DNA of 64,000 nucleotides from a virus (taxonomy: Duplodnaviria > Caudoviricetes). Of this stretch, positions 36,061 through 47,478 are shown one piece after another. The DNA lies in the IMG/VR virus record IMGVR_UViG_3300038443_002533, positions 208,471-272,470 of that record. One strand, given 5' to 3'. The translations under genes were made by a program, and so were the position numbers. Each line of letters opens with the position of its first letter. Position 1 is the stretch's first letter. Under the pieces are notes generated by a model. The model saw only the letters and a program-made list of their open reading frames with translations. It did not search any database and was not told the DNA's origin.

Positions 36061-36780
36061 TTATTTTTTTGCTTCTTTGGAGAGCAACTCGTCTTTGGGC
36101 CAGTACACGAGGAACTTGGCTTGACGTGCTTCCACCCGACCCGGGTACTTACTGTTGATCATGCAGAACGATTCACCGTAGCCCGCGACCTTGACATTGG
36201 CTTGCGGGCATTGCTGATCGAGATGACCGAACCATTGATCGGCTTGACACCCTGGCGTTGTCCGGCACGAACGGATGCGTTTGGTCACACTTCCGAACCC
36301 GCCGTTATACGTGGCCCCATCGCACGCCTTGATGTTACGGTTCCCCGACAGTACCGCCCGACAGTTGCGCTCGTTGACTTTCATCTTGAGCACCAACCCG
36401 CGGAGCTGGTATTGTGCGTTGTAGCAATCGGCCCAGGTCCAACCCTTCAGTGTTGGGTCGAGCCGTTTGGTTTCTTCCAACGCATCAAAGCGCACATTGC
36501 CTTGGGCATCGTACGCTTTAGTGAACTGACCCAGACCACAACCAAACTCGCGTGAGGTCTTCAAGGTAGCTTTGATCTTCCAGTTCGACTCTTGGTCGGG
36601 AATCGCCGCCATCCAACTGCGCGGGGTCAGATCCGGCCAGTAAGTCTCGATCTCGTGATTGAGAATCGGCAGACCACTGGCGGCATCCCCGGGTAGCTTC
36701 TGCGCGAAGGCGCCGGTAACGGCGAGCACGTAGAACAGAAAGAACATCGCCACCCCGACGATGATGTTAGCGACCCGCAT
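36061..36780 (-). CDS. SLT-family lytic transglycosylase with N-terminal membrane/signal segment (endolysin candidate)
   Basis: MRVANIIVGVAMFFLFYVLAVTGAFA leader; catalytic DQESNW, GLGQF, TYNGG motifs; several Cys. Confidence 0.8.
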   Translation of the reverse strand: MRVANIIVGVAMFFLFYVLAVTGAFAQKLPGDAASGLPILNHEIETYWPDLTPRSWMAAIPDQESNWKIKATLKTSREFGCGLGQFTKAYDAQGNVRFDALEETKRLDPTLKGWTWADCYNAQYQLRGLVLKMKVNERNCRAVLSGNRNIKACDGATYNGGFGSVTKRIRSCRTTPGCQADQWFGHLDQQCPQANVKVAGYGESFCMINSKYPGRVEARQAKFLVYWPKDELLSKEAKK

Positions 36781-36782
36781 GG

Positions 36783-37184
36783 TTATTGCGCCAGGTAGAT
36801 CAACACCACCACACGGAACGCCCATTGCACGGTATTGACCGCATGCAGGGCCACCGCCGCACCCGGATGGAAGCGGGCTTCACCCAGCGCATCATTCAAA
36901 CCATGACGGGTATCGACCGTACTGGGTTGCGTCGCGAAACGAATCCAGAACACGCTCATTTCGATGAACGTGAGTTTGGCCGATGCCAGCATCATCGGAA
37001 TGAATTCCGGGAAGCGGTGCACCAGGGCGAAGCGATCGCTCATGCCCGAGTCGACCAAATGGTCCACCAGCGCGAAGCCGAACGATGTCAGCAGAGCCAG
37101 CGCTACGCTGCGCGCGAACATGCGTTGGAACAGATCCCAGCTTTGCTGGGTGAATTCAAACAACTTACGGTGTAGTCGGGACAT
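36783..37184 (-). CDS. Putative holin-like membrane protein
   Basis: AAGGAGG RBS before ATG 37184; about three hydrophobic segments; stop lies 2 nt before the transglycosylase start. Confidence 0.5.
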   Translation of the reverse strand: MSRLHRKLFEFTQQSWDLFQRMFARSVALALLTSFGFALVDHLVDSGMSDRFALVHRFPEFIPMMLASAKLTFIEMSVFWIRFATQPSTVDTRHGLNDALGEARFHPGAAVALHAVNTVQWAFRVVVLIYLAQ

Positions 37185-37395
37185 GAAGTCCTCCTTTGGC
37201 TTTGCGGGCTGCGCTTTGCTCTGGCGTGAGCCACGCACCGCTTAAGGTTTGGAAATAGCCGACGTTGACATCGTCCGGGATTTCTAGATAGTTATCCGCC
37301 TGATCGACACCCACGTGTTCTTCGATGCTGTGGCCTACGGGCAACTCAATGACCGCTACCACCACATTCTTGTACAATCGCCCGTAGCGTACCAT
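37165..37395 (-). CDS. Small fibre-associated protein (76 aa)
   Basis: YGRLYKNVVVAVIE...LEIPDDVNVGY resembles small proteins that usually accompany Gly-rich phage fibre genes. Confidence 0.5.
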   Translation of the reverse strand: MVRYGRLYKNVVVAVIELPVGHSIEEHVGVDQADNYLEIPDDVNVGYFQTLSGAWLTPEQSAARKAKGGLHVPTTP

Positions 37396-37488
37396 GTTAA
37401 TACCTTTGAAGAATGAAGTTGCGAAGGCGTCAACGCCTCCATAACAATGGATGATGTTTTCTTCGCAGCAACATTCTGCTACAAAGGT

Positions 37489-38553
37489 TTAACCCACATC
37501 CGAGGAAACGAGTTTACCGATCCACGTGACACCACCGTCATAGGTAGTGAATTCGTATTCGCTGATCGAGTTAGCCGCAGCCACTCGGGTCGGTACGGTT
37601 TTGTTCGGCCACAGGATCGGCGAGGCGAACGCGATACTACGGTTACCCACTGCATCATTACGAATCAGCACCCCGAACTTGAGGTAATCGTTTCCAGCCA
37701 GACCCGTGATCCCAGTCAGATCGAACTGGAACGTGGTGTTGCTGTTGAGCGCTACCACGAAGCGATTGGCCTGGCTCAAGTTGAACTTGGTGACGGCGCT
37801 GGCCGCGGTCAGCTGTTTAACGATTTCACGGTGGCCGGCTTTGAAGTAGCCATACCCATCCACGGTCAGGCGACCAAACAACTCACCACCGGCTGCATTG
37901 AATGGGGTGTAGCCGAGCGTGTTGACGATGGATTGCGCAGTCGAGCGCGATTGCACCATGGCGTCGATCACCGATTGCATATTCGCCAACTGGCCGTTCA
38001 GGTAATCGTACACACCCTTTTGACCAGCCGCCGAACCGAGCAGCACGCCGTCACGCAGACGATCGATCGCCGCCGACAGGTATTCGAAGCCGTACAGATC
38101 ACCCGCATCGTGCAGGTGCGGGGCCGGTGGGTAACCATCGGGTTTACCGATGATGTTGTCGAATTGGATCGTGCGGCTATCCAGCCCCAGGTCTTTCACC
38201 AGTTGCACAATCGCGTCATAGCTGAAGCTGTATTCGCCGCCCAGCATCTGCGCATCGAGCATGACATTCGCGCCACAGGTCGCGTCGGTGATGACGAGGA
38301 TCTGGTGGATCTCACGGCCAGTCCGTGCAGTCGGATCGGTGTAGAGGATACTCGGGTAGTAATCCACCCCTTTGGTCAAGGTGCGGTTGGTCGCCACATC
38401 ACGCAGGGCGATCGAGTCGGTGAAGAACGCGCCGTAGTTGGGCACGAGGATGCGGATATTCGTACCAGGCAACACATGCAATTCATTCGTCACACGGTTA
38501 CTGACAGCCGCACCCGTCAAATCAAGCGGGTATTTGACTGGAACTAAAGACAT
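37489..38553 (-). CDS. Tail-fibre/adaptor protein, paralogue of 43667-44899
   Basis: N-terminal YPLDLTG..SNRVTNE; central FDNIIGKPDGYPPAPHLH; C-terminal NLSQANRF...WP...P....YDGGVTWIG domain. Confidence 0.7.
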   Translation of the reverse strand: MSLVPVKYPLDLTGAAVSNRVTNELHVLPGTNIRILVPNYGAFFTDSIALRDVATNRTLTKGVDYYPSILYTDPTARTGREIHQILVITDATCGANVMLDAQMLGGEYSFSYDAIVQLVKDLGLDSRTIQFDNIIGKPDGYPPAPHLHDAGDLYGFEYLSAAIDRLRDGVLLGSAAGQKGVYDYLNGQLANMQSVIDAMVQSRSTAQSIVNTLGYTPFNAAGGELFGRLTVDGYGYFKAGHREIVKQLTAASAVTKFNLSQANRFVVALNSNTTFQFDLTGITGLAGNDYLKFGVLIRNDAVGNRSIAFASPILWPNKTVPTRVAAANSISEYEFTTYDGGVTWIGKLVSSDVG

Positions 38554-38580
38554 AAAGGGCTCCGAGATCAGAAATAATAA

Positions 38581-38615
38581 TGCCAGCTAGGCCCTTGACA
38601 GGACCTAAGCTGGCA
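38581..38615 (-). terminator. Hairpin with U-rich tail on - strand
   Basis: TGCCAGCTAGG...CCTAAGCTGGCA; reads TTATTATTTCT downstream on the - strand. Confidence 0.5.
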
Positions 38616-38634
38616 CGGGAATAAAGCGAGTTAC

Positions 38635-39105
38635 TTAACCGCCAGGAAGAGGCGGCACCGTAGGCCATACGATGTTGTAGGGGTCCGGATTGGTGGTGGG
38701 CAAATCACGGATCGCTTGCATGTATTGCAGCACGGGATTGATGTTCTCAGTGTGCGGCAGATCCAGCGCAGTTTCGTCGTTGTAGCGATCCACACGCCAA
38801 CGCTGTGCATCGATCAACTCACTGCGGGTAGCATCCAAGCTATTCCACTTGAGTTCCCAGGCGCCCGCACGGGCGATGCCGATAGCAGCCGAACTGACAC
38901 CGGCGGCCAACGCGTCCGCTTCCATGACGAAGCCGAGGTCCAGGTACTTGGTATCGGCCCAGGTCGCATGCAGGTCTTGCAGCACCGCATAGTCGACATC
39001 CGACAACCCGGTGATGGTGCCATACACCGCCGGCACGTCGCCCGCGTACAGTATCGCTTTGGTGGTTTTGTTAATCAGGTAAACCAACCCTGTGACACGA
39101 CTCAT
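38635..39105 (-). CDS. Tail-fibre assembly chaperone-like protein
   Basis: C-terminal W....TRSELI...W.VD....YMQAIRDLPTTNPDPYNIVWPTVP, the phage tail assembly chaperone pattern (YRQALRDLP....P..I.WP..P). Confidence 0.7.
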   Translation of the reverse strand: MSRVTGLVYLINKTTKAILYAGDVPAVYGTITGLSDVDYAVLQDLHATWADTKYLDLGFVMEADALAAGVSSAAIGIARAGAWELKWNSLDATRSELIDAQRWRVDRYNDETALDLPHTENINPVLQYMQAIRDLPTTNPDPYNIVWPTVPPLPGG

Positions 39106-39878
39106 TCTTGCACCTCGCTGGTGGTAACTTTCTTAAAGTGGAACATGCGTCGATAGGCGCCCATGCGTCGCGATGGGAAGCCATAACGCTGTTGATCGAT
39201 TTCGGTCGGGGTGCCTTTACCACACACGCCATGATAGCTGGTGCGTTTAAACGGCAGTGCTTGCAAAATCACTTCCCCTGCCGGGATCACGATTTCACAC
39301 GGGCGGATCACCGTTAAGATGATGTTGGCCGTATGAAAGTTTTCATAGTCCACCGTGCCGGGATAGATGAAGATCTTGTCCAGATGGGGGAAATGCATCA
39401 GCGCCGGTACCAAATGCACCGAATGTCCCGGTTCCGTGAAGATACTCCACGGCAGCGGTACCTTAAACACCTTGCACTTCACCCCATCGATGGGCGGCAA
39501 GCCTTGAATGACTTCGACATCCATCTCGGTCGGGTGCAATTGCTGGTCGACGATATGCGGTGTACTGACCACCACCCCAGCGCTGTTGGCTTTGATGTGG
39601 ATGTCGGTATGCGCACGAATCAAGAAGCCTTCTTGCATGTAGTCGTGCATGCCAGGACAGCGCACGAACTTCACCGGTTTCTTTTCCAGCTTGGCACGGC
39701 TGATCTGTTGACGCAACCATTCCGGGATTACGCCTTTGGCCGCCACCACTGGATTGATGTGGTGATACGCCCCGGTGGTGCTTTTAAAGCGTACCACCGA
39801 GTTCGCACTCCAGCGTTGCACCCGGCGACTGAGCGTGCTTAAACCATGCACCAAACCATCGAGCAGGCGGGCAATCAT
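39102..39878 (-). CDS. dUTPase-fold-like protein of unknown function, paralogue 2
   Basis: IPEWLR, RCPGMHDYMQEGF, PWSIFTEPGHS, GTVDY, IPAGEVILQALPFKR; 4-nt overlaps at both ends. Confidence 0.55.
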   Translation of the reverse strand: MIARLLDGLVHGLSTLSRRVQRWSANSVVRFKSTTGAYHHINPVVAAKGVIPEWLRQQISRAKLEKKPVKFVRCPGMHDYMQEGFLIRAHTDIHIKANSAGVVVSTPHIVDQQLHPTEMDVEVIQGLPPIDGVKCKVFKVPLPWSIFTEPGHSVHLVPALMHFPHLDKIFIYPGTVDYENFHTANIILTVIRPCEIVIPAGEVILQALPFKRTSYHGVCGKGTPTEIDQQRYGFPSRRMGAYRRMFHFKKVTTSEVQE

Positions 39879-40681
39879 TTACGTGGCTCCCGCAATTCTT
39901 TGGTGTAGTAATTGCTGCGCGCATTCTGGACCCGTGCCGTGGTGTCGAGCGCATGCCGTTCCGCGTGGGTCATGACCCGGGTGATGATATCCCGCGGTAC
40001 GTCGGCCCGTTTGAACGGAATCGCAGTCACCAGCGGCGTACCAGCACGCACCAAGCCATCGTGTTCCTTAGCGAACCACAGGCCCGGGAAGTTGACTTGG
40101 CGATGGTAGGTATCGGTGTCCACCACCGCACCCAGACAACGGAACCGGTCTTCCGCCGTATGGTTCAGCGGCGGGATGAAGAGCGTCGAGTAACCAGGGC
40201 GCGTGCGAATCAGCCAGGGGTTGTGAAACTTCACCGCCGGCATCGGGTACGTCGGGTAGTGGTCACCCAGTTGGTCTTTCGAGTGCGTCGAAATCGCATT
40301 GAACGTCGACCCCGAACGCACTTCGATGTTCTTGCCATCGCCATTGGTGCGGACAAACGCATCCGCAGCCAGGACCATGGTGTAACCCAGCCCCATGCCA
40401 TCCAGGAGCGGGATGCAGCTCTTGGCGGTCATGGCCTTGGCACCGAACTGATCACGCGCGGCTTGACCGCCCCCCGGGATTTCCATCGGGATCTTCTTCC
40501 ACCACTCCGCCACGTGTTTGAATGCCGGGACCGGTGGCAGCAGAATACCGTTCCATTGCGGTTCGATGGAGAACTCGATGATGGGGATCTGTTGATCCAG
40601 GTCTTCTTGCGTGGTGGGACGCAGACCCAGGTCGAGCAGACGCTCTTCAGTCAATAAAAAACGAATTAAACGGTTCAGCAT
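39875..40681 (-). CDS. dUTPase-fold-like protein of unknown function, paralogue 1
   Basis: AEWWKK, SCIPLLDGMGLGY, PWLIRTRPGYS, GAVVDTD, VRAGTPLVTAIPFKR; start ATG 40681 preferred over track start 40723. Confidence 0.55.
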   Translation of the reverse strand: MLNRLIRFLLTEERLLDLGLRPTTQEDLDQQIPIIEFSIEPQWNGILLPPVPAFKHVAEWWKKIPMEIPGGGQAARDQFGAKAMTAKSCIPLLDGMGLGYTMVLAADAFVRTNGDGKNIEVRSGSTFNAISTHSKDQLGDHYPTYPMPAVKFHNPWLIRTRPGYSTLFIPPLNHTAEDRFRCLGAVVDTDTYHRQVNFPGLWFAKEHDGLVRAGTPLVTAIPFKRADVPRDIITRVMTHAERHALDTTARVQNARSNYYTKELREPRK

Positions 40682-40695
40682 AACGTACTTTCCGA

Positions 40696-41364
40696 TTAGC
40701 AGATCTTGGGACCCAGCGCCCACACCACGATCGATGCCCGTTTACCCGAGGTCACGGGACGAACGCGGTGCGGAATGTGCGAGTAAAAGAACACCATCGT
40801 GCCGGCAGCGGGTTTCAGCAACACGGTACGGTCGGGGTTGCCACCGATGTTCAGTTCGAGTTCACCACCCTCGTACTCTTCCGGACCGGTCAGCATCAGG
40901 ACCGCTGACAACTTCCGGTGTTCGTTACTCTCCAGGTCTTCATGGGCATCGACGTGCCAGTCGTAATGCTGATTGAGGCCGTACTTGGTGAATTGCATTG
41001 GGTGGAACGAATCGAGCAGCATCTGGAACTTATCGCGGTTCACCATGCCAACGATATCCGCCATCTTGCCAATCAGTTCACGCCGCTGCTGGAGTTCCGG
41101 CAGGGCCGGGTCGTCATTGATCCAGGCGATTTCGGAATCACGCACCTTGCTATCTTTGACATTGCTGCCCACCAGGCCGGCTTGGAAGATCATCAGATCG
41201 CCCAAGTCGAGGATGCGTTTGCATTCATCGCGCTCGACTTTGTATACCGGCGCTTCGCCCGGCTTTTCGGCAACCCAACCATTGCCGAATGCATTGAACA
41301 GTTCCACATACGACTTGTACGCGAAGGTGCGTTGGGGGATCGAGTAACGGATCGGCTGATTCAT
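40696..41364 (-). CDS. 2OG-Fe(II) oxygenase, prolyl-4-hydroxylase/PKHD-like
   Basis: Fe triad HVD (YDWHVDA) and H (IPHRV); 2OG-binding Arg (GKRASIV); RKLS and YEGGEL. Confidence 0.9.
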   Translation of the reverse strand: MNQPIRYSIPQRTFAYKSYVELFNAFGNGWVAEKPGEAPVYKVERDECKRILDLGDLMIFQAGLVGSNVKDSKVRDSEIAWINDDPALPELQQRRELIGKMADIVGMVNRDKFQMLLDSFHPMQFTKYGLNQHYDWHVDAHEDLESNEHRKLSAVLMLTGPEEYEGGELELNIGGNPDRTVLLKPAAGTMVFFYSHIPHRVRPVTSGKRASIVVWALGPKIC

Positions 41365-41382
41365 GGTAGTTTCCTTAGTTTT

Positions 41383-43647
41383 TTAGAACTGTTGTTTAAT
41401 GACCACTTGGGCACCGGGTCCCACAGTTACCGGTGTGCCATTGGCGGAATAGGCTACAGTGACAACTTGTTCTGCCACATAATTGCCAGCGGTGGCCGCA
41501 GGGGCCCCTGGGAAGGTCACCCCCAGCGCTTGGAACGGTGCCGAAGCAACCCCTGGGGTGGACGGATTGTAGATCGCCGTCCCCGGTGCAGTGGGGTTGT
41601 AGTTGGCATTCCCCGGCATGACCGGATTGTAATTCGCCGTTCCTGGACTGGTCGGGTTGTAATACGCCGTGCCCGGGGTGGTCGGATTATAATTGGCCGT
41701 ACCAGGTGTCGCTGGGTTGTAATACGCATTGCCAGGTGTCGACGGGTTGTAACTGGCATTTCCGCCCGTGGGGGAGTTATAGTTCGCCGTCCCATCCGCG
41801 GTTGGGTTGTACCCGGTGTAACCCGGATTGGTGTACGCGGGCGCGTAACTTCCCGGGTTGGTGTTACCCGGTACATACGACGGTGGGTTCGACACGTTGT
41901 AGCTCGTGTAGCCCGGGGTATACGTACCCGGGTTGGTCGTACCCGCATCCAGAATACATTCGATGGTCTGGACGTAGTTCTGGTTACCTTCGTAGTTCGG
42001 CGGGTTGGTCCACGCATAGGCCCAGCCAGTCGGACAGGTCTCCTGCATCTGTATTTCGGTGTACTGCGCATCCGTGTTCACGTTACCCGGGGTGTACGTC
42101 GGCGAATACGTGACCGGGTTACCGGGTGCGTACGAACCTGGGTTGGTATTGCCCGGGGTGTACGAAGCTGGCACGTAGTTACCTGGCACGGTGTAGCTGT
42201 TGCCTGGGGTCGGTGGGTTGTACCCACTGATGTTGCCCGGTACCACGGGGTTGGTACCCGCATAGTTGCCTGGCGTGGCAGGGTTATAGCCGGAGACATT
42301 CCCCGGTTGATCCGGGTTGTAGCCCGATACGTTCCCTGGCGTCGCAGGATTGGTCCCGGCATAATTGCCCGGGCTCGGCGGATTGTAGCTGGCCAAATTA
42401 CCACCCGTCGGCGAGTTGTAATTGGCGATGTTCCCCGGGGTTGGCGGGTTGTACGCGATGTTACCCGGCGTCGGTGGGTTGTAATACGCGTTGCCCCCCG
42501 TCGGTGGATTGTAGTTCGCGGTACCACCCGTGGTCGGGTTATACGTCGGATTACCACCCGATGGCGGTGTCCCAGGGTTGGTCACTACGTTGCCCGGTAC
42601 GACCGGGTTATAACCAGCGATGTTACCCGGCGTCGGGCTGTTGTAGTTGGCGTTACCGCTGATGGGCGGATTATAGTTGGCCGTACCGCCGGTGGTGGGG
42701 TTATAGCTGGTATTACCCGGAGTGTAGCTCGGCGAGTTGCTGTAGCCGGGGCTATACGTACCGGGGTTGGTGTAGTTGGTCGAGGCCGTGTACGTACCCG
42801 GATTGTAGTACGCTGGCGTGTAGCTGCCAGGATTGGTGGCTGGGTTGCCGGGGGTGGTATACGCCGTGTTGTAGCTCGTGTTGCCGGGCGTATAAGTCCC
42901 AGGGTTGGTGTTACCCGGCACGTAGATATCGCAAACTTTGTGTGGTTTACCCAAGTCGTCGTAGGTGTAACCCGCGAAGGTCCAGCCCGATGGACACGGA
43001 ATGAATCCACCAGGACCATACCCCGTCGTGATTTCGTCATCGTAGCCTGCGTTGGTGTTACCCGGGGTGTACGTGGCCGGATTGGTGTAGGCCGTACTCG
43101 GCACATACGTCGGTGGATTGGTATATGCCGTCCCTGGGGTATAACTCGCAGGTACCAAGTTCCCGGGCGTGTAACTGGCCGGATTCGAGGCCGGGTTCCC
43201 AGGCGAATAGCTCGGCGGTACGTAGTTGCCCGGGGTGTACGTGCCAGGGTTGCTGTACGAATTCCCCGGTACCACGGGATTGTAGCTGGCCACATTTCCA
43301 GGTGAACCAGGATTGTAGTTAGCGACTGTCCCGGGGATGGTGGGGTTGTAATACGCGGTACCCGGGGTGGTGGGGTTGTACACCACATTGCCGGGCACCA
43401 CGGGATTATACCCTACGACGTTGCCAGGCGAAACCGGGTTGTAGCCGGCGATGTTACCGGGGGTGGGAGGATTATACTGCGCGTTACCGCCCACCGGCGC
43501 ATTGCCTGGCGAACCGGTCCCGGATACGATGACGTGAAATTTACCATATGGCAAGGACACCATCCCCGGGGCATTGAACACCGAGGTATTGGGTACGATC
43601 CTAGCATTGGTCTTTTCACGCCTGAGTTTAGTAGTAAGCCGACTCAT
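41383..43647 (-). CDS. 754-aa Tyr-Asn-Pro repeat protein, probable virion fibre/whisker
   Basis: About 27 YNP (counted by eye) in 10-11-aa units YNPxxPG(N/T), plus YTPG/TNPG units; two CPxGW...C motifs. Confidence 0.8.
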   Translation of the reverse strand: MSRLTTKLRREKTNARIVPNTSVFNAPGMVSLPYGKFHVIVSGTGSPGNAPVGGNAQYNPPTPGNIAGYNPVSPGNVVGYNPVVPGNVVYNPTTPGTAYYNPTIPGTVANYNPGSPGNVASYNPVVPGNSYSNPGTYTPGNYVPPSYSPGNPASNPASYTPGNLVPASYTPGTAYTNPPTYVPSTAYTNPATYTPGNTNAGYDDEITTGYGPGGFIPCPSGWTFAGYTYDDLGKPHKVCDIYVPGNTNPGTYTPGNTSYNTAYTTPGNPATNPGSYTPAYYNPGTYTASTNYTNPGTYSPGYSNSPSYTPGNTSYNPTTGGTANYNPPISGNANYNSPTPGNIAGYNPVVPGNVVTNPGTPPSGGNPTYNPTTGGTANYNPPTGGNAYYNPPTPGNIAYNPPTPGNIANYNSPTGGNLASYNPPSPGNYAGTNPATPGNVSGYNPDQPGNVSGYNPATPGNYAGTNPVVPGNISGYNPPTPGNSYTVPGNYVPASYTPGNTNPGSYAPGNPVTYSPTYTPGNVNTDAQYTEIQMQETCPTGWAYAWTNPPNYEGNQNYVQTIECILDAGTTNPGTYTPGYTSYNVSNPPSYVPGNTNPGSYAPAYTNPGYTGYNPTADGTANYNSPTGGNASYNPSTPGNAYYNPATPGTANYNPTTPGTAYYNPTSPGTANYNPVMPGNANYNPTAPGTAIYNPSTPGVASAPFQALGVTFPGAPAATAGNYVAEQVVTVAYSANGTPVTVGPGAQVVIKQQF
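41570..43490 (-). repeat. Degenerate coding tandem repeat (30-33 nt units)
   Basis: Recurrent + strand GGGTTGTA/GGATTGTA/GGGTTATA words at about 30-33 nt spacing; synonymous sites are diverged. Confidence 0.85.
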
Positions 43648-43666
43648 GCTGTGGTACCTTTAGTAG

Positions 43667-44899
43667 TTAGCGCGGATTGGCGTTCGACATCGAGCCCGTC
43701 CAAGTGACCATGTTATCGTCCGAGACGAAATACCACAGGTCTTTGGCACCGGCCGAGGTGGTGCGTGGGGGCGGCGCACCGTCAACCCACTTGACGTTGT
43801 TGGGCCAAGCGATGGCGTAAGCGTTGCCGCTGTTGTCGTTGACCGTGGTGACGGCGAATTCCACCACCTTACCGGTCATGTCCCCGACACGGCTGGTGTC
43901 AAACCCGATCGAACCATTGCCAGCGATCGTGATGGTGAAGGCTTCCGCTTGGGAAATATCCACCGCCATGGTACTGGTCATATTCAACGCCACCAGATTT
44001 TGTGAACCGAGGCCACTGAATTGCGGCCGCAGGCTGTTGGCTTTCTTGCTCAGCGCGGTATTGATGGCATTGATCGAGCCTTGCAGCTTTTCAAACGCCA
44101 TCAACACCGTATCGCCTTCCGCCAGACTGTCCGCCACCAGATTGGCCAGATTGGTCAGGTGCGTGCTCAGCACCCGGTCTTCAGTGAAGTACTTGTTGGT
44201 ATTGCCTTCGCGGACTTGGTCGGTGTTGGCGGCAAAGCCGTCCAGAGCCAATTGAATCGCGAGGGACATCTCCGCCTTGGTCGGTACATTGAGTTGACTC
44301 GCCGACACCCCGTGTGGGTTTTCGTGGTCAGCGATGTGCAGCACCATGGCATTGCTGGCTTGGGTCAGGATCGCATCGACGATGCGGTTGATCGCATCCA
44401 CCACATCCTTCATACCGACCATGTCTTGCAGATTCCAAGCATGCGGCACCGGTGGGAATACGTTCGGGTAACCGGCGACCATGTCCCAGCTGGTGGTGCG
44501 CGGGTTATGCACTTGGTCTGCCAGCAGCGCCGTGATGGTGGCTGCGTCCAGCGTCCATTCACCACCGATGGTTTGGTATTGATTGAAGATCAGCGTGCCG
44601 ACCAGTTCCGTATTCAGGATCGTGATCGACCCGTAGATCGGGTGCATACAGGCGCGCGAGGCGCCGATGAATTCGTGGGAAAAGTAGTAATCCACCCCCT
44701 GCACCAGCGGCCGAATATCGCCTTGCAACGTCTTGAAGCTGAGCGACATGCTCTCGCCAAAGAACGGCGCGAGTTTCGGGATCACGAAGGTATAAGCGGC
44801 ACCGGCACCCGTGAGTGCCTGCAATTCGCCCTGGATGCGGTTAGCGGGAAGCTGACCCGTCGGATCAAAGGCATAAGTCGGATTGGCTAAGGTGGTCAT
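43667..44899 (-). CDS. Tail-fibre/adaptor protein (phiKZ-type N-terminal anchor)
   Basis: YAFDPTG..ANRIQGE; SWDMVAGYPNVFPPVPHAW; DHENPHGV; C-terminal DISQAEAF...WP..VKW....P...DDNMVTWTG. Confidence 0.7.
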   Translation of the reverse strand: MTTLANPTYAFDPTGQLPANRIQGELQALTGAGAAYTFVIPKLAPFFGESMSLSFKTLQGDIRPLVQGVDYYFSHEFIGASRACMHPIYGSITILNTELVGTLIFNQYQTIGGEWTLDAATITALLADQVHNPRTTSWDMVAGYPNVFPPVPHAWNLQDMVGMKDVVDAINRIVDAILTQASNAMVLHIADHENPHGVSASQLNVPTKAEMSLAIQLALDGFAANTDQVREGNTNKYFTEDRVLSTHLTNLANLVADSLAEGDTVLMAFEKLQGSINAINTALSKKANSLRPQFSGLGSQNLVALNMTSTMAVDISQAEAFTITIAGNGSIGFDTSRVGDMTGKVVEFAVTTVNDNSGNAYAIAWPNNVKWVDGAPPPRTTSAGAKDLWYFVSDDNMVTWTGSMSNANPR

Positions 44900-46281: not shown

Positions 46282-46539
46282 TCACGTTGAGGTGGTGGAA
46301 CCGGTGCCGATAATGGTCGCCCCGCAGCCGGCTTTATCGCCACTGCGGATAATCCCTTTGCCATTGGCCGACGAACTGCCGGTTGCGGTGATCGGGGTGG
46401 TGCCATGCCCATGAATCGGGCATTGGTGCAAATCCCCATCGATCACGCCCGCGATCCCATCTACGGTGAATCCACCCGAGGCTTGGATGATAGTGCCGCC
46501 ATGGTCGCTCTGGTCACCCAGCTTTGCGATATTGCTCAT
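46282..46539 (-). CDS. PAAR-repeat spike tip (phiKZ gp163.1-like)
   Basis: AKLGDQSDHGG, GDLHQCPIHGHG, RSGDKAGCGA; His/Cys metal ligands. Confidence 0.9.
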   Translation of the reverse strand: MSNIAKLGDQSDHGGTIIQASGGFTVDGIAGVIDGDLHQCPIHGHGTTPITATGSSSANGKGIIRSGDKAGCGATIIGTGSTTST

Positions 46540-46551
46540 GCTGATCCTCCG

Positions 46552-47478
46552 TTATGCCAACGCCACACCGTGACTGATCTTCACGCCATTACCATCGATG
46601 TCGATGTGCCCGCCGGCTTTCTCACTGATGGTGCCGCTGGCGTTGAGGTTATACGTTCCGGTGCTTTCCTTCAGACTGTCGCTGGCGTTGACTTCATACG
46701 CTTTGGTGGATTCGGTGATACTGTCGCCCGAGGTGATCTTCACCGTCTCGCCGATTTCTTCCACCTTGTTCTTGGCACGCAGCGTATACGTTTCCGGCAC
46801 TTGGATGGTGAGGTTCTTTTTGTTGAGATCCATGTAGCAATCATCGGCGTTCTTGGCTGCGATCTGGCGTTCTTGCGAATCGAACAAAATGAAATTGCCC
46901 ACGTCGTCGGTGATTTGAATCCGACCGTCTTTGGCATTGATCTCAATGTCATACATGCAGAATTCGCCATTGGCTTTGCTGGTATGAAACCGTACCGCCC
47001 CACGGTGAGTCGAGATCTCAAAGAAGTAGTAACTCTCGCCATCGACTTCCGCACCTTCTTTCTGGGTGGCACTCCAGGCGTAGATCACGGTTTCCAGTTT
47101 GCGCAGCTTCATGTCATCCAACAGCGTGGTCCAGAAGAACTCGTTGCGGTCGGCGAAGCGGTACAGCACCACTTGGGCGCCACGACGGACATCCGGCGCC
47201 GTAAAGCGGTTGTCATTGCCAAGCGGAATCCACGTGGCTGGGACGCTGTTGGCCGTGGTGGTTTGGACACTGGTGACTCCACCCGTACTGTCAGTCAGAC
47301 TGGCGGTATCGGTCACGATGCCCGATTTGACTTCACCGTCCAATAACGTCAGGTCTTCAACCGGCGTGATTTCCACCACCCGATTGGGTTTCCCATCAGG
47401 ACCGGTCAGCTTCTTATTCTCCGCGACGATCCCGTAGGAGTAAAACTTCAATTCGGATGCTTGGCCTGCCAGTGGCAT
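46552..47478 (-). CDS. Central spike protein (phiKZ gp164-like; OB-fold + beta-helix)
   Basis: WIPLGNDNRFTAPDVRRGAQV OB-fold-like segment, repetitive beta-strand C-terminus; directly upstream of PAAR. Confidence 0.8.
   Translation of the reverse strand: MPLAGQASELKFYSYGIVAENKKLTGPDGKPNRVVEITPVEDLTLLDGEVKSGIVTDTASLTDSTGGVTSVQTTTANSVPATWIPLGNDNRFTAPDVRRGAQVVLYRFADRNEFFWTTLLDDMKLRKLETVIYAWSATQKEGAEVDGESYYFFEISTHRGAVRFHTSKANGEFCMYDIEINAKDGRIQITDDVGNFILFDSQERQIAAKNADDCYMDLNKKNLTIQVPETYTLRAKNKVEEIGETVKITSGDSITESTKAYEVNASDSLKESTGTYNLNASGTISEKAGGHIDIDGNGVKISHGVALA

Follow-up and report, generated by a model that had tools for sequence, protein, structure and literature searches.

Phages abundantly encode 2-oxoglutarate (2OG) oxygenases that resemble prolyl 4-hydroxylases (P4Hs), the role of which "remains cryptic" (PMC9301287), and for those of cyanophages either DNA repair or the draw-down of 2OG has been put forward as the role (PMC3037559). 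What might such an enzyme act on when its gene lies among fiber genes? The question is raised by a window of 64,000 nucleotides (bases 208471-272470 of the 272,470-bp IMG/VR virus record IMGVR_UViG_3300038443_002533, which has direct terminal repeats and is rated complete), in which the gene for a 2OG-Fe(II) oxygenase follows that for a Pro- and Asn-rich repeat protein and precedes two paralogous genes related to DUF6065 (herein referred to as DUF6065-A and DUF6065-B, or A and B). We propose that these genes form a self-modifying fiber module in which the oxygenase hydroxylates the repeat protein with a DUF6065 heteromer as its partner, a reading to which we give about an even chance of being correct. 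The four genes belong to a run of eight open reading frames, all on the minus strand and all present as a preliminary description of this DNA had reported them, inside a baseplate/fiber block with baseplate and PAAR genes on one side and a lysis gene on the other (table 1). The coordinates give spacings of 19, 18, and 14 nt (the last to the ATG start of DUF6065-A), two 4-nt overlaps and then 81 and 93 nt, in agreement with the earlier statement that gaps from 44899 to 38635 are shorter than 20 nt or are 4-nt overlaps.

This arrangement is widely shared. An alignment-based scan of IMG/VR with DUF6065-A recovered at least 590 relatives (a single-protein scan of IMG/VR with DUF6065-A gave no match), and the counts that follow refer to the best 80 loci, at 35-73% identity and on contigs of 6-226 kb. 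The oxygenase is encoded directly upstream of A in 77 of these loci, B directly downstream of A in 73, and a repeat-family protein upstream in 70, as recognized by hidden Markov models (HMMs) that were built on both protein termini from 10 seeds and match both ends in most genes upstream of the oxygenase; the full order of repeat protein(s), oxygenase, A and B is kept in 68, and several of the exceptions are contigs with cut ends. The cassette is conserved and is no chance neighborhood. Only 15 of the 80 loci have a match to the chaperone HMM, and the flanking fibers vary. Jumbo-phage contigs of 154-323 kb (48-73% identity) carry repeat protein, oxygenase, A, B, and chaperone in that order, and a prophage of Undibacterium sp. 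Rencai35W carries the cassette with a repeat protein of 202 aa at L009 6796-7404 (the host being a cultured isolate), beside head and adaptor genes (Phage_capsid_3, SU10_adaptor) unlike the neighbors in the jumbo-phage relatives. Copies of the repeat gene range from one to four while the enzymes stay single, as would be expected of substrates and their modifying enzymes: on a 263-kb JGI contig (Ga0495616_0000004; L007 2346-7260, where L-numbers label the related loci that we compared), four tandem paralogues of 383, 390, 397, and 411 aa, the fourth of which had escaped the gene caller, precede a single oxygenase/A/B/chaperone set.

Reverse sampling by the oxygenase gave 80 loci, and the linkage was found in all 15 of those at 37% identity or above; the other 65 (31-41% identity, mostly a 212-aa protein) have no DUF6065 or repeat-family neighbor. 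The linkage is hence specific to this oxygenase subfamily and not general to phage P4H-like genes. The co-occurrence foreseen in the preliminary description therefore holds for the oxygenase orthologous group and breaks down among more distant loci, and its extension to the "many phage P4H-like genes" near tail genes has to be withdrawn.

The candidate substrate has no match in Pfam, PHROG, or NCBIfam and founds a family without a name, here called the YNP family. Its composition is dominated by five residues (P 16.7%, N 14.1%, T 13.4%, G 13.0%, Y 10.7%), with only 10 Lys and Arg in total, and its repeats comprise 31 long units, each 10-11 residues in length and of the form [Y/T]N[P/S]xx[P/G/S/D]G, together with shorter units of the YTPGN type (periods of 10-11 residues for YNPxxPGNxx and 7-10 for YTPGN..., with a DNA period of 30 nt). 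There are 56 Pro-Gly dipeptides and four Cys, the latter arranged as two CPxGW...C pairs. A collagen-like reading of the repeats is ruled out, as they have no Gly-X-Y triplets and no Gly at every third residue. Across the compared loci, family members are 183-967 aa long and their units differ completely among lineages (YNPxxPGN, YNQGSQNLANT, FNIVPGNATGT, NFNPATNGPQ, NPPNPGSYTPG and, in another lineage, the 24-residue YNTNYNVVYPVxNQPIANQPATAW); Asn occurs in every repeat type seen (8-25% of each protein), and Pro makes up 4-25%.

The repeats are organized by a split base domain, two out-and-back arms and two Cys-bounded tips. An AlphaFold2 (AF2) model is confident only at residues ~20-55 and 690-754 (predicted local distance difference test [pLDDT] up to 95, and a mean of 81-95 per 10-residue block over residues 21-50), with moderate confidence at the tips. 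Structure matches to the base run from residue ~13 to residue 754 yet align only 80-95 residues to single jelly-roll or beta-sandwich domains, from which we conclude that both termini form one split beta-sandwich; the matches are generic jelly-rolls (Z ≤5.6) and not diagnostic. In the N-terminal half, E11, F24, G35, K36, G43, G45, and G48 are invariant in an alignment of 14 family members, and the C-terminal G[VI]x[FL]PG[GSA] motif is present in 66 of 71 distinct members. Segment lengths are mirror-symmetric about the tips (74/69-tip-70/74, then 97/40-tip-45/88 residues), and in 17 single-tip relatives the tip is the midpoint of the repeat region, with closely correlated arm lengths before and after it (r = 0.97, mean ratio 1.12, range 23-376 residues). 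We conclude from these symmetries that the chain leaves the base, reaches the tip, and returns, twice in the protein of this phage.

The oxygenase, the only PF13640 gene in the genome, scores 75.1 bits against that family (cut-off 27, E 9e-21, residues 123-216; 76.1 bits in the genome search). The HxD...H...R signature that had been called intact is so: H137, D139, H199, and R209 are invariant in an 18-sequence alignment, align with the equivalent residues of 3dkq, and are retained at 97-100% across 70 orthologues with identities as low as 35%. Such conservation of metal- and 2OG-binding residues points to selection on catalysis, and judged by its sequence the enzyme looks active. Its closest solved relatives are the PKHD-type 3dkq (E 1e-8) and PiuC, and all interpretable PDB matches are prolyl hydroxylases; the PBCV-1-type prolyl 4-hydroxylase 5c5t matches at E 0.003. 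The YbiX/PiuC structures (3dkq, 9ghl, 9qn1) are the best solved relatives of the core (E 1e-8 to 7e-6, residues 119-216), but the best score against the YbiX/PiuC equivalogs NF003972-NF003975 is 64.7 bits, far below the cut-off of 143, so the oxygenase is related to YbiX/PiuC without being an orthologue; as YbiX/PiuC are not known to have an established substrate, the match gives no functional transfer. At JGI the orthologues bear the name "PKHD-type hydroxylase." A quick tree of 138 sequences showed 4 label changes, and a tree that held the cassette oxygenases together was rejected (p-AU 0.012); as labeling by adjacency puts at least 8 extra oxygenases of cassette loci in the wrong class, we make no clade claim for them.

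The proteins encoded after the oxygenase are related to a broad family. DUF6065-A scores 20.1-20.3 bits against PF19541 (DUF6065), short of the cut-off of 26.6, and B has no Pfam match; of 53 aligned homologues, 50 match PF19541 when E values up to 1 are allowed, the best of them being 9.5e-10, and the ESM Atlas structural neighbors are DUF6065 clusters (TM 0.72-0.77). There are 122 close homologues of A in a 5.8-billion-protein set, and a profile search reached 4082 representative clusters. The suggestion that A and B are dUTPase-fold paralogues, made earlier from the letters of the DNA, is confirmed: alignment of B to the A alignment with hhalign gives a probability of 98.6% (E 7e-16), and the AF2 model of A (pLDDT 94.2, from a 53-sequence alignment) has a dUTPase-like beta-clip jelly-roll. 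The best match is 3h6x, with VIA Z 9.3 and an rmsd of 3.3 Å for 121 aligned residues; eight dUTPases reach Z ≥8.5 and are followed by dCTP deaminases, and Foldseek gives E 1.6e-4 to 3ecy. Identity in the structural alignments is 8-17%, and phmmer against the PDB found no match at E up to 10.

In A, some 20 polar or special residues are invariant over 73 sequences (including K87, C89, D94, H133, G163, S165, D188, D190, T215, P216, and R225). Over 61 sequences, B retains the Cys-Pro-Gly-x-x-Asp segment and a few others and loses several A-specific invariants; an invariant Cys is common to both. The two are predicted to bind each other: the modeled complex has an ipSAE of 0.78 (best of 3 controls 0.01), a mark that 51 of 78 solved complexes attain, as do 2 of 108 mismatched pairs. 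Since solved structures of dUTPase-type oligomers exist, likeness may account for part of this pass. Contact agreement between model runs is at least 72% and partner pLDDT at least 69. In the model, residues 183-187 of A, adjoining D188/D190, pack on the Cys-Pro-Gly-x-x-Asp segment of B, an interface that would resemble the inter-subunit active sites of dUTPases.

Associations between DUF6065 and 2OG oxygenases recur outside the cassette. The ESM Atlas holds a viral cluster of 84 members in which PF13640 is fused to DUF6065 and a bacterial cluster of 73 members in which Cupin_8/JmjC is fused to it (both known from cluster records of this one resource, and thus a single source); DUF6065 also occurs in tandem, with two matched stretches in the 479-aa protein P0166. 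In L113 1-7654, on an Acidimicrobiaceae metagenome-assembled genome (MAG) contig, oxygenase-like and DUF6065 genes alternate, with five weak-to-clear oxygenase matches and three DUF6065 within 8 kb. On a 73-kb JGI contig (Ga0153801_1000003; L012 258-12940), fiber genes (Phage_fiber_2, Mtd_N) precede those for a thioredoxin-like protein and three DUF6065 copies, after which come a methyltransferase-like protein, a PF13640 oxygenase, GT25, and a PF11397 GlcNAc-transferase (the Skp1-type hydroxyproline family), an arrangement that looks like a hydroxylation-plus-glycosylation variant. In the present phage, GT2 and GT25 have no match in the 272-kb genome, and the earlier idea that hydroxylation primes glycosylation finds no support here. 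The control of a PF11397 search matched in no genome.

Single DUF6065 homologues also lie at the border between tail-fiber and nucleotide-metabolism/replication genes in the Hafunaviridae haloviruses HF1 (L003 7938-8822) and HSTV-2 (L096 5929-6798). In Alcaligenaceae MAGs, stand-alone DUF6065 genes adjoin the gene for ribosomal protein S1 (L110 7808-9643) and that for EF-Tu (L111 7703-8914), which may be coincidence. No small repeat-peptide gene was found upstream of stand-alone bacterial DUF6065 in 7 loci.

We hypothesize that the YNP protein is a distal fiber or adhesin component that would dock on the C-terminal domain of the fiber encoded upstream, and that the oxygenase would hydroxylate it in late gene expression, before or during folding. 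In this phage, prolines in X-Pro-Gly would be the likeliest targets; there are 56 such sites, and the conserved FPG motif of the base is among them. The A/B heteromer would work with the oxygenase, either as a substrate-holding subunit or as a second enzyme whose chemistry would involve the invariant Cys at the A-B interface, and the downstream chaperone would then help the fiber to assemble. A bolder version, which we consider rather unlikely, is that the heteromer represents a new class of protein-modifying enzyme that accompanies 2OG oxygenases, with a dUTPase fold and with the invariant Cys and acidic residues at a composite interface, and that it, for example, cross-links hydroxylated residues or adds a nucleotide-activated group, the YNP arms being its dedicated substrate; if true, the receptor-binding fibers of phages would carry a post-translational modification of a new kind.

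Viral hydroxylation of a virus's own repeat proteins has precedents among eukaryotic viruses. Mimivirus encodes a hydroxylase that acts on its own repeat proteins, and in PBCV-1 the genes for the substrates are not known to share an operon with that for the enzyme, of which PDB 5c5t/5c5u (titled "Prolyl 4-hydroxylase") are presumably structures. PBCV-1 has a virus-encoded prolyl 4-hydroxylase together with its own Pro-rich repeat open reading frames (Eriksson et al. 1999, doi 10.1074/jbc.274.32.22131, as cited in PMC9301287). The present cassette likewise pairs a viral P4H-type oxygenase with a viral Pro-rich repeat protein, with the weak similarity to 5c5t noted above; PBCV-1 is, however, a eukaryotic giant virus that has no DUF6065 partners and (PAPK)n-like repeats rather than 10-11-residue YNPxxPGN units, and the activity of its enzyme, unlike that proposed here, has been demonstrated in vitro.

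Hydroxylation of a repeat chain ahead of assembly is also familiar from cellular systems. Collagen P4H and the Bacillus anthracis P4H, which serves the exosporium fiber BclA, hydroxylate X-Pro-Gly in the unfolded repeat chain before assembly, with an accessory, non-catalytic subunit (PDI) in the animal enzyme. Here, too, a small beta-sandwich anchors a repeat region, and BclA and C1q-type domains are weak matches to the YNP base (Z 4.5-5.3); in contrast, the YNP repeats are not Gly-X-Y and no triple helix is expected, the chain appears to fold back, and the partners are of the dUTPase fold.

Several observations weigh against this proposal. The phage is uncultured and the module is known here from its genes; the solved structures closest to the oxygenase, which are of the YbiX/PiuC type, carry no annotation beyond "PKHD-type hydroxylase," and we know of no established substrate for YbiX/PiuC. 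The repeats have a pLDDT of ~30 in the AF2 model and no confident fold, which leaves site accessibility unjudgeable and makes polyproline-II or beta-solenoid forms of the arms no more than ideas. The base FPG motif is absent in 5 of the 71 family members, and three loci (L061, L066, and L073) in which the repeat protein has 4-6% Pro and Pro-free units still carry the oxygenase (in L061 the unit is YNQGSQNLANT and the protein has 4% Pro). Halovirus DUF6065 genes adjoin thymidylate synthase, DNA polymerase, or ribonucleotide reductase genes, and the annotation of the stretch shown includes no oxygenase; in bacteria, the stand-alone copies are surrounded by unrelated genes that share no theme. 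Finally, a second YNP-family locus in the same genome is flanked by a fiber and a chaperone but has no oxygenase or DUF6065 genes. The claim of the preliminary description, that the phage hydroxylates Pro or Asn in its own fiber, thus draws support from the conserved co-occurrence and the fusions, and is weakened as to the target residue, given the Pro-free repeats of some relatives and the constant presence of Asn.

The alternative closest to our proposal keeps the module and its substrate and changes the residue: Asn (to beta-hydroxy-Asn) or the neighboring aromatic residue would be modified, possibly with DUF6065. All repeat types (YNP, YNQ, YNA, FNI, NFNP, YNTNYNV, SNP) have a single feature in common, namely Asn, mostly behind an aromatic residue. 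In addition, Cupin_8/JmjC, to which DUF6065 is fused, is the superfamily that includes FIH, an Asn hydroxylase that makes beta-hydroxy-Asn in ankyrin repeats. Conserved Asn may, however, be purely structural (turns, Asn ladders), all interpretable PDB matches of the oxygenase are prolyl hydroxylases, and characterized PF13640 enzymes hydroxylate Pro or Lys, with Asn/Asp hydroxylases found in other families. We therefore favor Pro as the target on account of the oxygenase family and keep Asn in play on account of the comparative pattern, although we consider the non-Pro version unlikely.

The remaining alternatives are less likely because of the invariant position of the enzymes after a repeat gene in a structural operon and their conserved catalytic residues. 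Under the first of these, which we hold to be distinctly unlikely, the enzymes act on another protein: a flanking fiber, some other protein of the virion, or a protein of the host, such as a translation factor or one of its surface. Bacterial and eukaryotic relatives of the oxygenase hydroxylate EF-Tu and ribosomal proteins, translation proteins being classic 2OG-oxygenase substrates, and the two stand-alone DUF6065 genes beside rpsA and tuf in Alcaligenaceae MAGs fit such a role. So does the second, shorter YNP-family gene 133 kb away in the same genome (G000:C1, the source genome, ~114.4-117.6 kb, outside the window), which lacks the enzymes; any modification of the distal protein would have to occur in trans or be dispensable. 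The fiber of that locus has a C-terminal domain 40% identical to that of the fiber at 43667-44899 (phrog_9017-type), and the presence of a like domain beside the second YNP gene supports the docking of YNP proteins on it. Against another target, the gene next upstream of the oxygenase encodes a repeat-family protein in 70 of 80 loci, while flanking fibers and chaperone vary, and a host-directed enzyme would be unexpected between a fiber gene and a chaperone gene, translationally coupled.

That the enzymes make or tailor a small molecule, or a non-ribosomal or ribosomal peptide metabolite, strikes us as quite improbable. The reading is prompted by cyanophage Syn9, in which a dioxygenase/halogenase cluster has been read as one for secondary-metabolite synthesis (Iyer, Abhiman, de Souza and Aravind 2010, PMC2938197) and in which gp43 is the DUF6065 homologue. 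In both Syn9 and S-RIM44, the DUF6065 homologue follows tail-fiber/fiber-assembly genes and two halogenases and precedes a battery of 2OG oxygenases that includes JmjC. The likeness to our cassette is considerable, with a dUTPase-fold protein that has a conserved Cys (gp43) beside 2OG oxygenases and downstream of tail-fiber and fiber-assembly genes. The Syn9 cluster differs in having about ten dioxygenases of five or more families, two halogenases, and one DUF6065 copy, and a YNP-family protein was not detected in it with the family HMMs. The cassette, in turn, has one oxygenase and no synthetase, halogenase, or transporter, and the neighbor is a protein of 183-967 aa with conserved folded termini in a structural operon, not a short precursor.

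Nucleotide or DNA modification, in which the dUTPase-fold pair binds a pyrimidine nucleotide that the oxygenase oxidizes (a TET/JBP-like logic), seems to us very improbable. It would account for the dUTPase/dCTP-deaminase fold, for the halovirus homologues beside thymidylate synthase, DNA polymerase, and ribonucleotide reductase, and for a VDTD motif in DUF6065-A that we take to resemble dUTPase motif III; the oxygenase also has a weak Tet_JBP match (E 0.008). That match, however, reaches 15.8 bits (cut-off 34.9) compared with 75 for PF13640, the dUTPase family PF00692 is matched by 1 of 53 DUF6065 family members (E 0.017), and the invariant place of the cassette is in a fiber operon rather than a replication module. 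Just as improbable are non-catalytic roles as assembly factors or minor structural parts, with a historical oxygenase signature: the directly following chaperone gene and the recruitment of dUTPase-fold domains as herpesvirus structural proteins (pp71 and ORF10 are among the structure matches to A) are in keeping with such roles, but the 97-100% conservation of the metal- and 2OG-binding residues down to 35% identity and the ~20 invariant polar residues of A are not.

We found no paper on own-repeat hydroxylation for a phage fiber, on the YNP family, or on DUF6065 by name. The cassette offers one oxygenase subfamily a concrete, testable substrate candidate in an adjacent gene. Were the proposed hydroxylation of the YNP protein true, this would be, as far as we could find, the first bacteriophage known to enzymatically hydroxylate its own receptor-binding fiber, and the split base with out-and-back hypervariable arms would be a new structural class of fiber protein. 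Such a class would bear on host-range prediction and phage engineering, as fibers might misfold, or bind poorly, if produced without the enzymes that modify them.

A further system for comparison is that of the T-even gp38-type tip adhesins, such as S16 gp38 with its polyglycine-II sandwich; gp38 is not known to need modifying enzymes. Like them, the YNP protein is a small separate protein encoded after the distal fiber gene and near a chaperone, with a conserved framework and hypervariable Gly/Pro-rich segments, and it is probably host-range determining. It differs in having no sequence match or confident structural match to gp38 and in its far longer hairpin arms (up to 376 residues per arm in relatives). 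The glycine-rich motif (GRM) concept for such adhesins is cited in PMC7230728.

Table 1. Features of the fiber run, its flanks, and the distal YNP-family locus (window coordinates unless a locus label is given).
Feature	Length (aa)	Position	Strand	Evidence or remark
Baseplate assembly protein		46552-47478		phrog_3216; flank of the run
PAAR protein		46282-46539		Same flank as the baseplate assembly gene
Proximal fiber/adaptor	410	43667-44899	-	phrog_28376 E 4e-47, phrog_2163 E 3e-44, phrog_13857 E 7e-44 (residues 7-257)
YNP-family repeat protein (candidate substrate)	754	41383-43647	-	Composition, repeat map, family HMMs
Base domain, N-terminal half (residues 1-57)		43477-43647	-	Motif FNAPG..(5)..YGK..(6)..G.G..GN
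Tip 1 (residues 201-244)		42916-43047	-	Cys218/Cys239, CPSGW...C; AF2 beta strands, pLDDT 58-77
Tip 2 (residues 526-567)		41947-42072	-	Cys538/Cys564, CPTGW...C; AF2
Base domain, C-terminal half (residues 701-754)		41386-41547	-	Motif G[VI]x[FL]PG[GSA]; AF2 pLDDT 87-95
2OG-Fe(II) oxygenase, P4H/PKHD type	222	40696-41364	-	PF13640 2OG-FeII_Oxy_3
DUF6065-A	268 from ATG (282 if GTG at 40723)	39875-40681	-	phrog_7084 E 3e-46
DUF6065-B	258	39102-39878	-	phrog_7084 E 3.5e-19; start overlaps end of A by 4 nt
Tail-fiber assembly chaperone	156	38635-39105	-	PF16778 Phage_tail_APC 30.1 bits (cut-off 26.6), residues 112-151; start overlaps end of B by 4 nt
Second fiber	354	37489-38553	-	phrog_2163 E 4e-63, phrog_9017 E 4e-12
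Open reading frame at end of run	76	37165-37395	-	No family match
Endolysin-like protein	254	36061-36825		phrog_669; other flank
Distal-locus fiber		L099 41-1303		
Distal-locus short YNP-family protein		L099 1186-2238		
Distal-locus fiber-assembly protein		L099 2250-3170		

Some product names in the Syn9 cluster call for comment. In L014 7964-13516 (gp45-gp53), the proteins named "minor coat protein" (gp52) and "DNA endonuclease V" (gp51 and gp53) score as 2OG oxygenases (PF13640, PF13759, DUF6445), and gp49 as JmjC; the scores of gp51 and gp53 lie below the Pfam cut-offs, and gp46, the other "minor coat protein," has no Pfam match. Those RefSeq names look wrong, given the 2OG oxygenase and JmjC assignments by Pfam. 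Two of these proteins, gp46 and gp49, were considered as extra DUF6065 copies and rejected (hhalign probability <1%).

The remaining genes of the run and its flanks are those of a fiber block. The two fibers are full-length paralogues with 23% identity (BLASTP E 9e-22); the N-terminus of the first is a domain of the attachment type, and its C-terminal ~100 aa (residues 293-406) form another, which matches phrog_9017 "tail fiber protein" at E 2e-16. The chaperone also matches phrog_188 and phrog_4912 "tail fiber assembly." Scans for promoters and terminators gave nothing that exceeded shuffled controls. Against 50,697 phage records, megablast of the region found no match, nor did tblastn of the repeat protein, for which low-complexity filtering may be the cause. 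On the baseplate/PAAR flank lies a divergently transcribed phrog_3337 gene, and genes for proteins of 75-91 aa occupy the position equivalent to the last open reading frame of the run in relatives (L004, L005). Directly downstream of the fiber run are genes for a 151-aa probable membrane protein and the endolysin-like protein (window 36061-37238), the reading frames of which share 43 nt (36783-36825).

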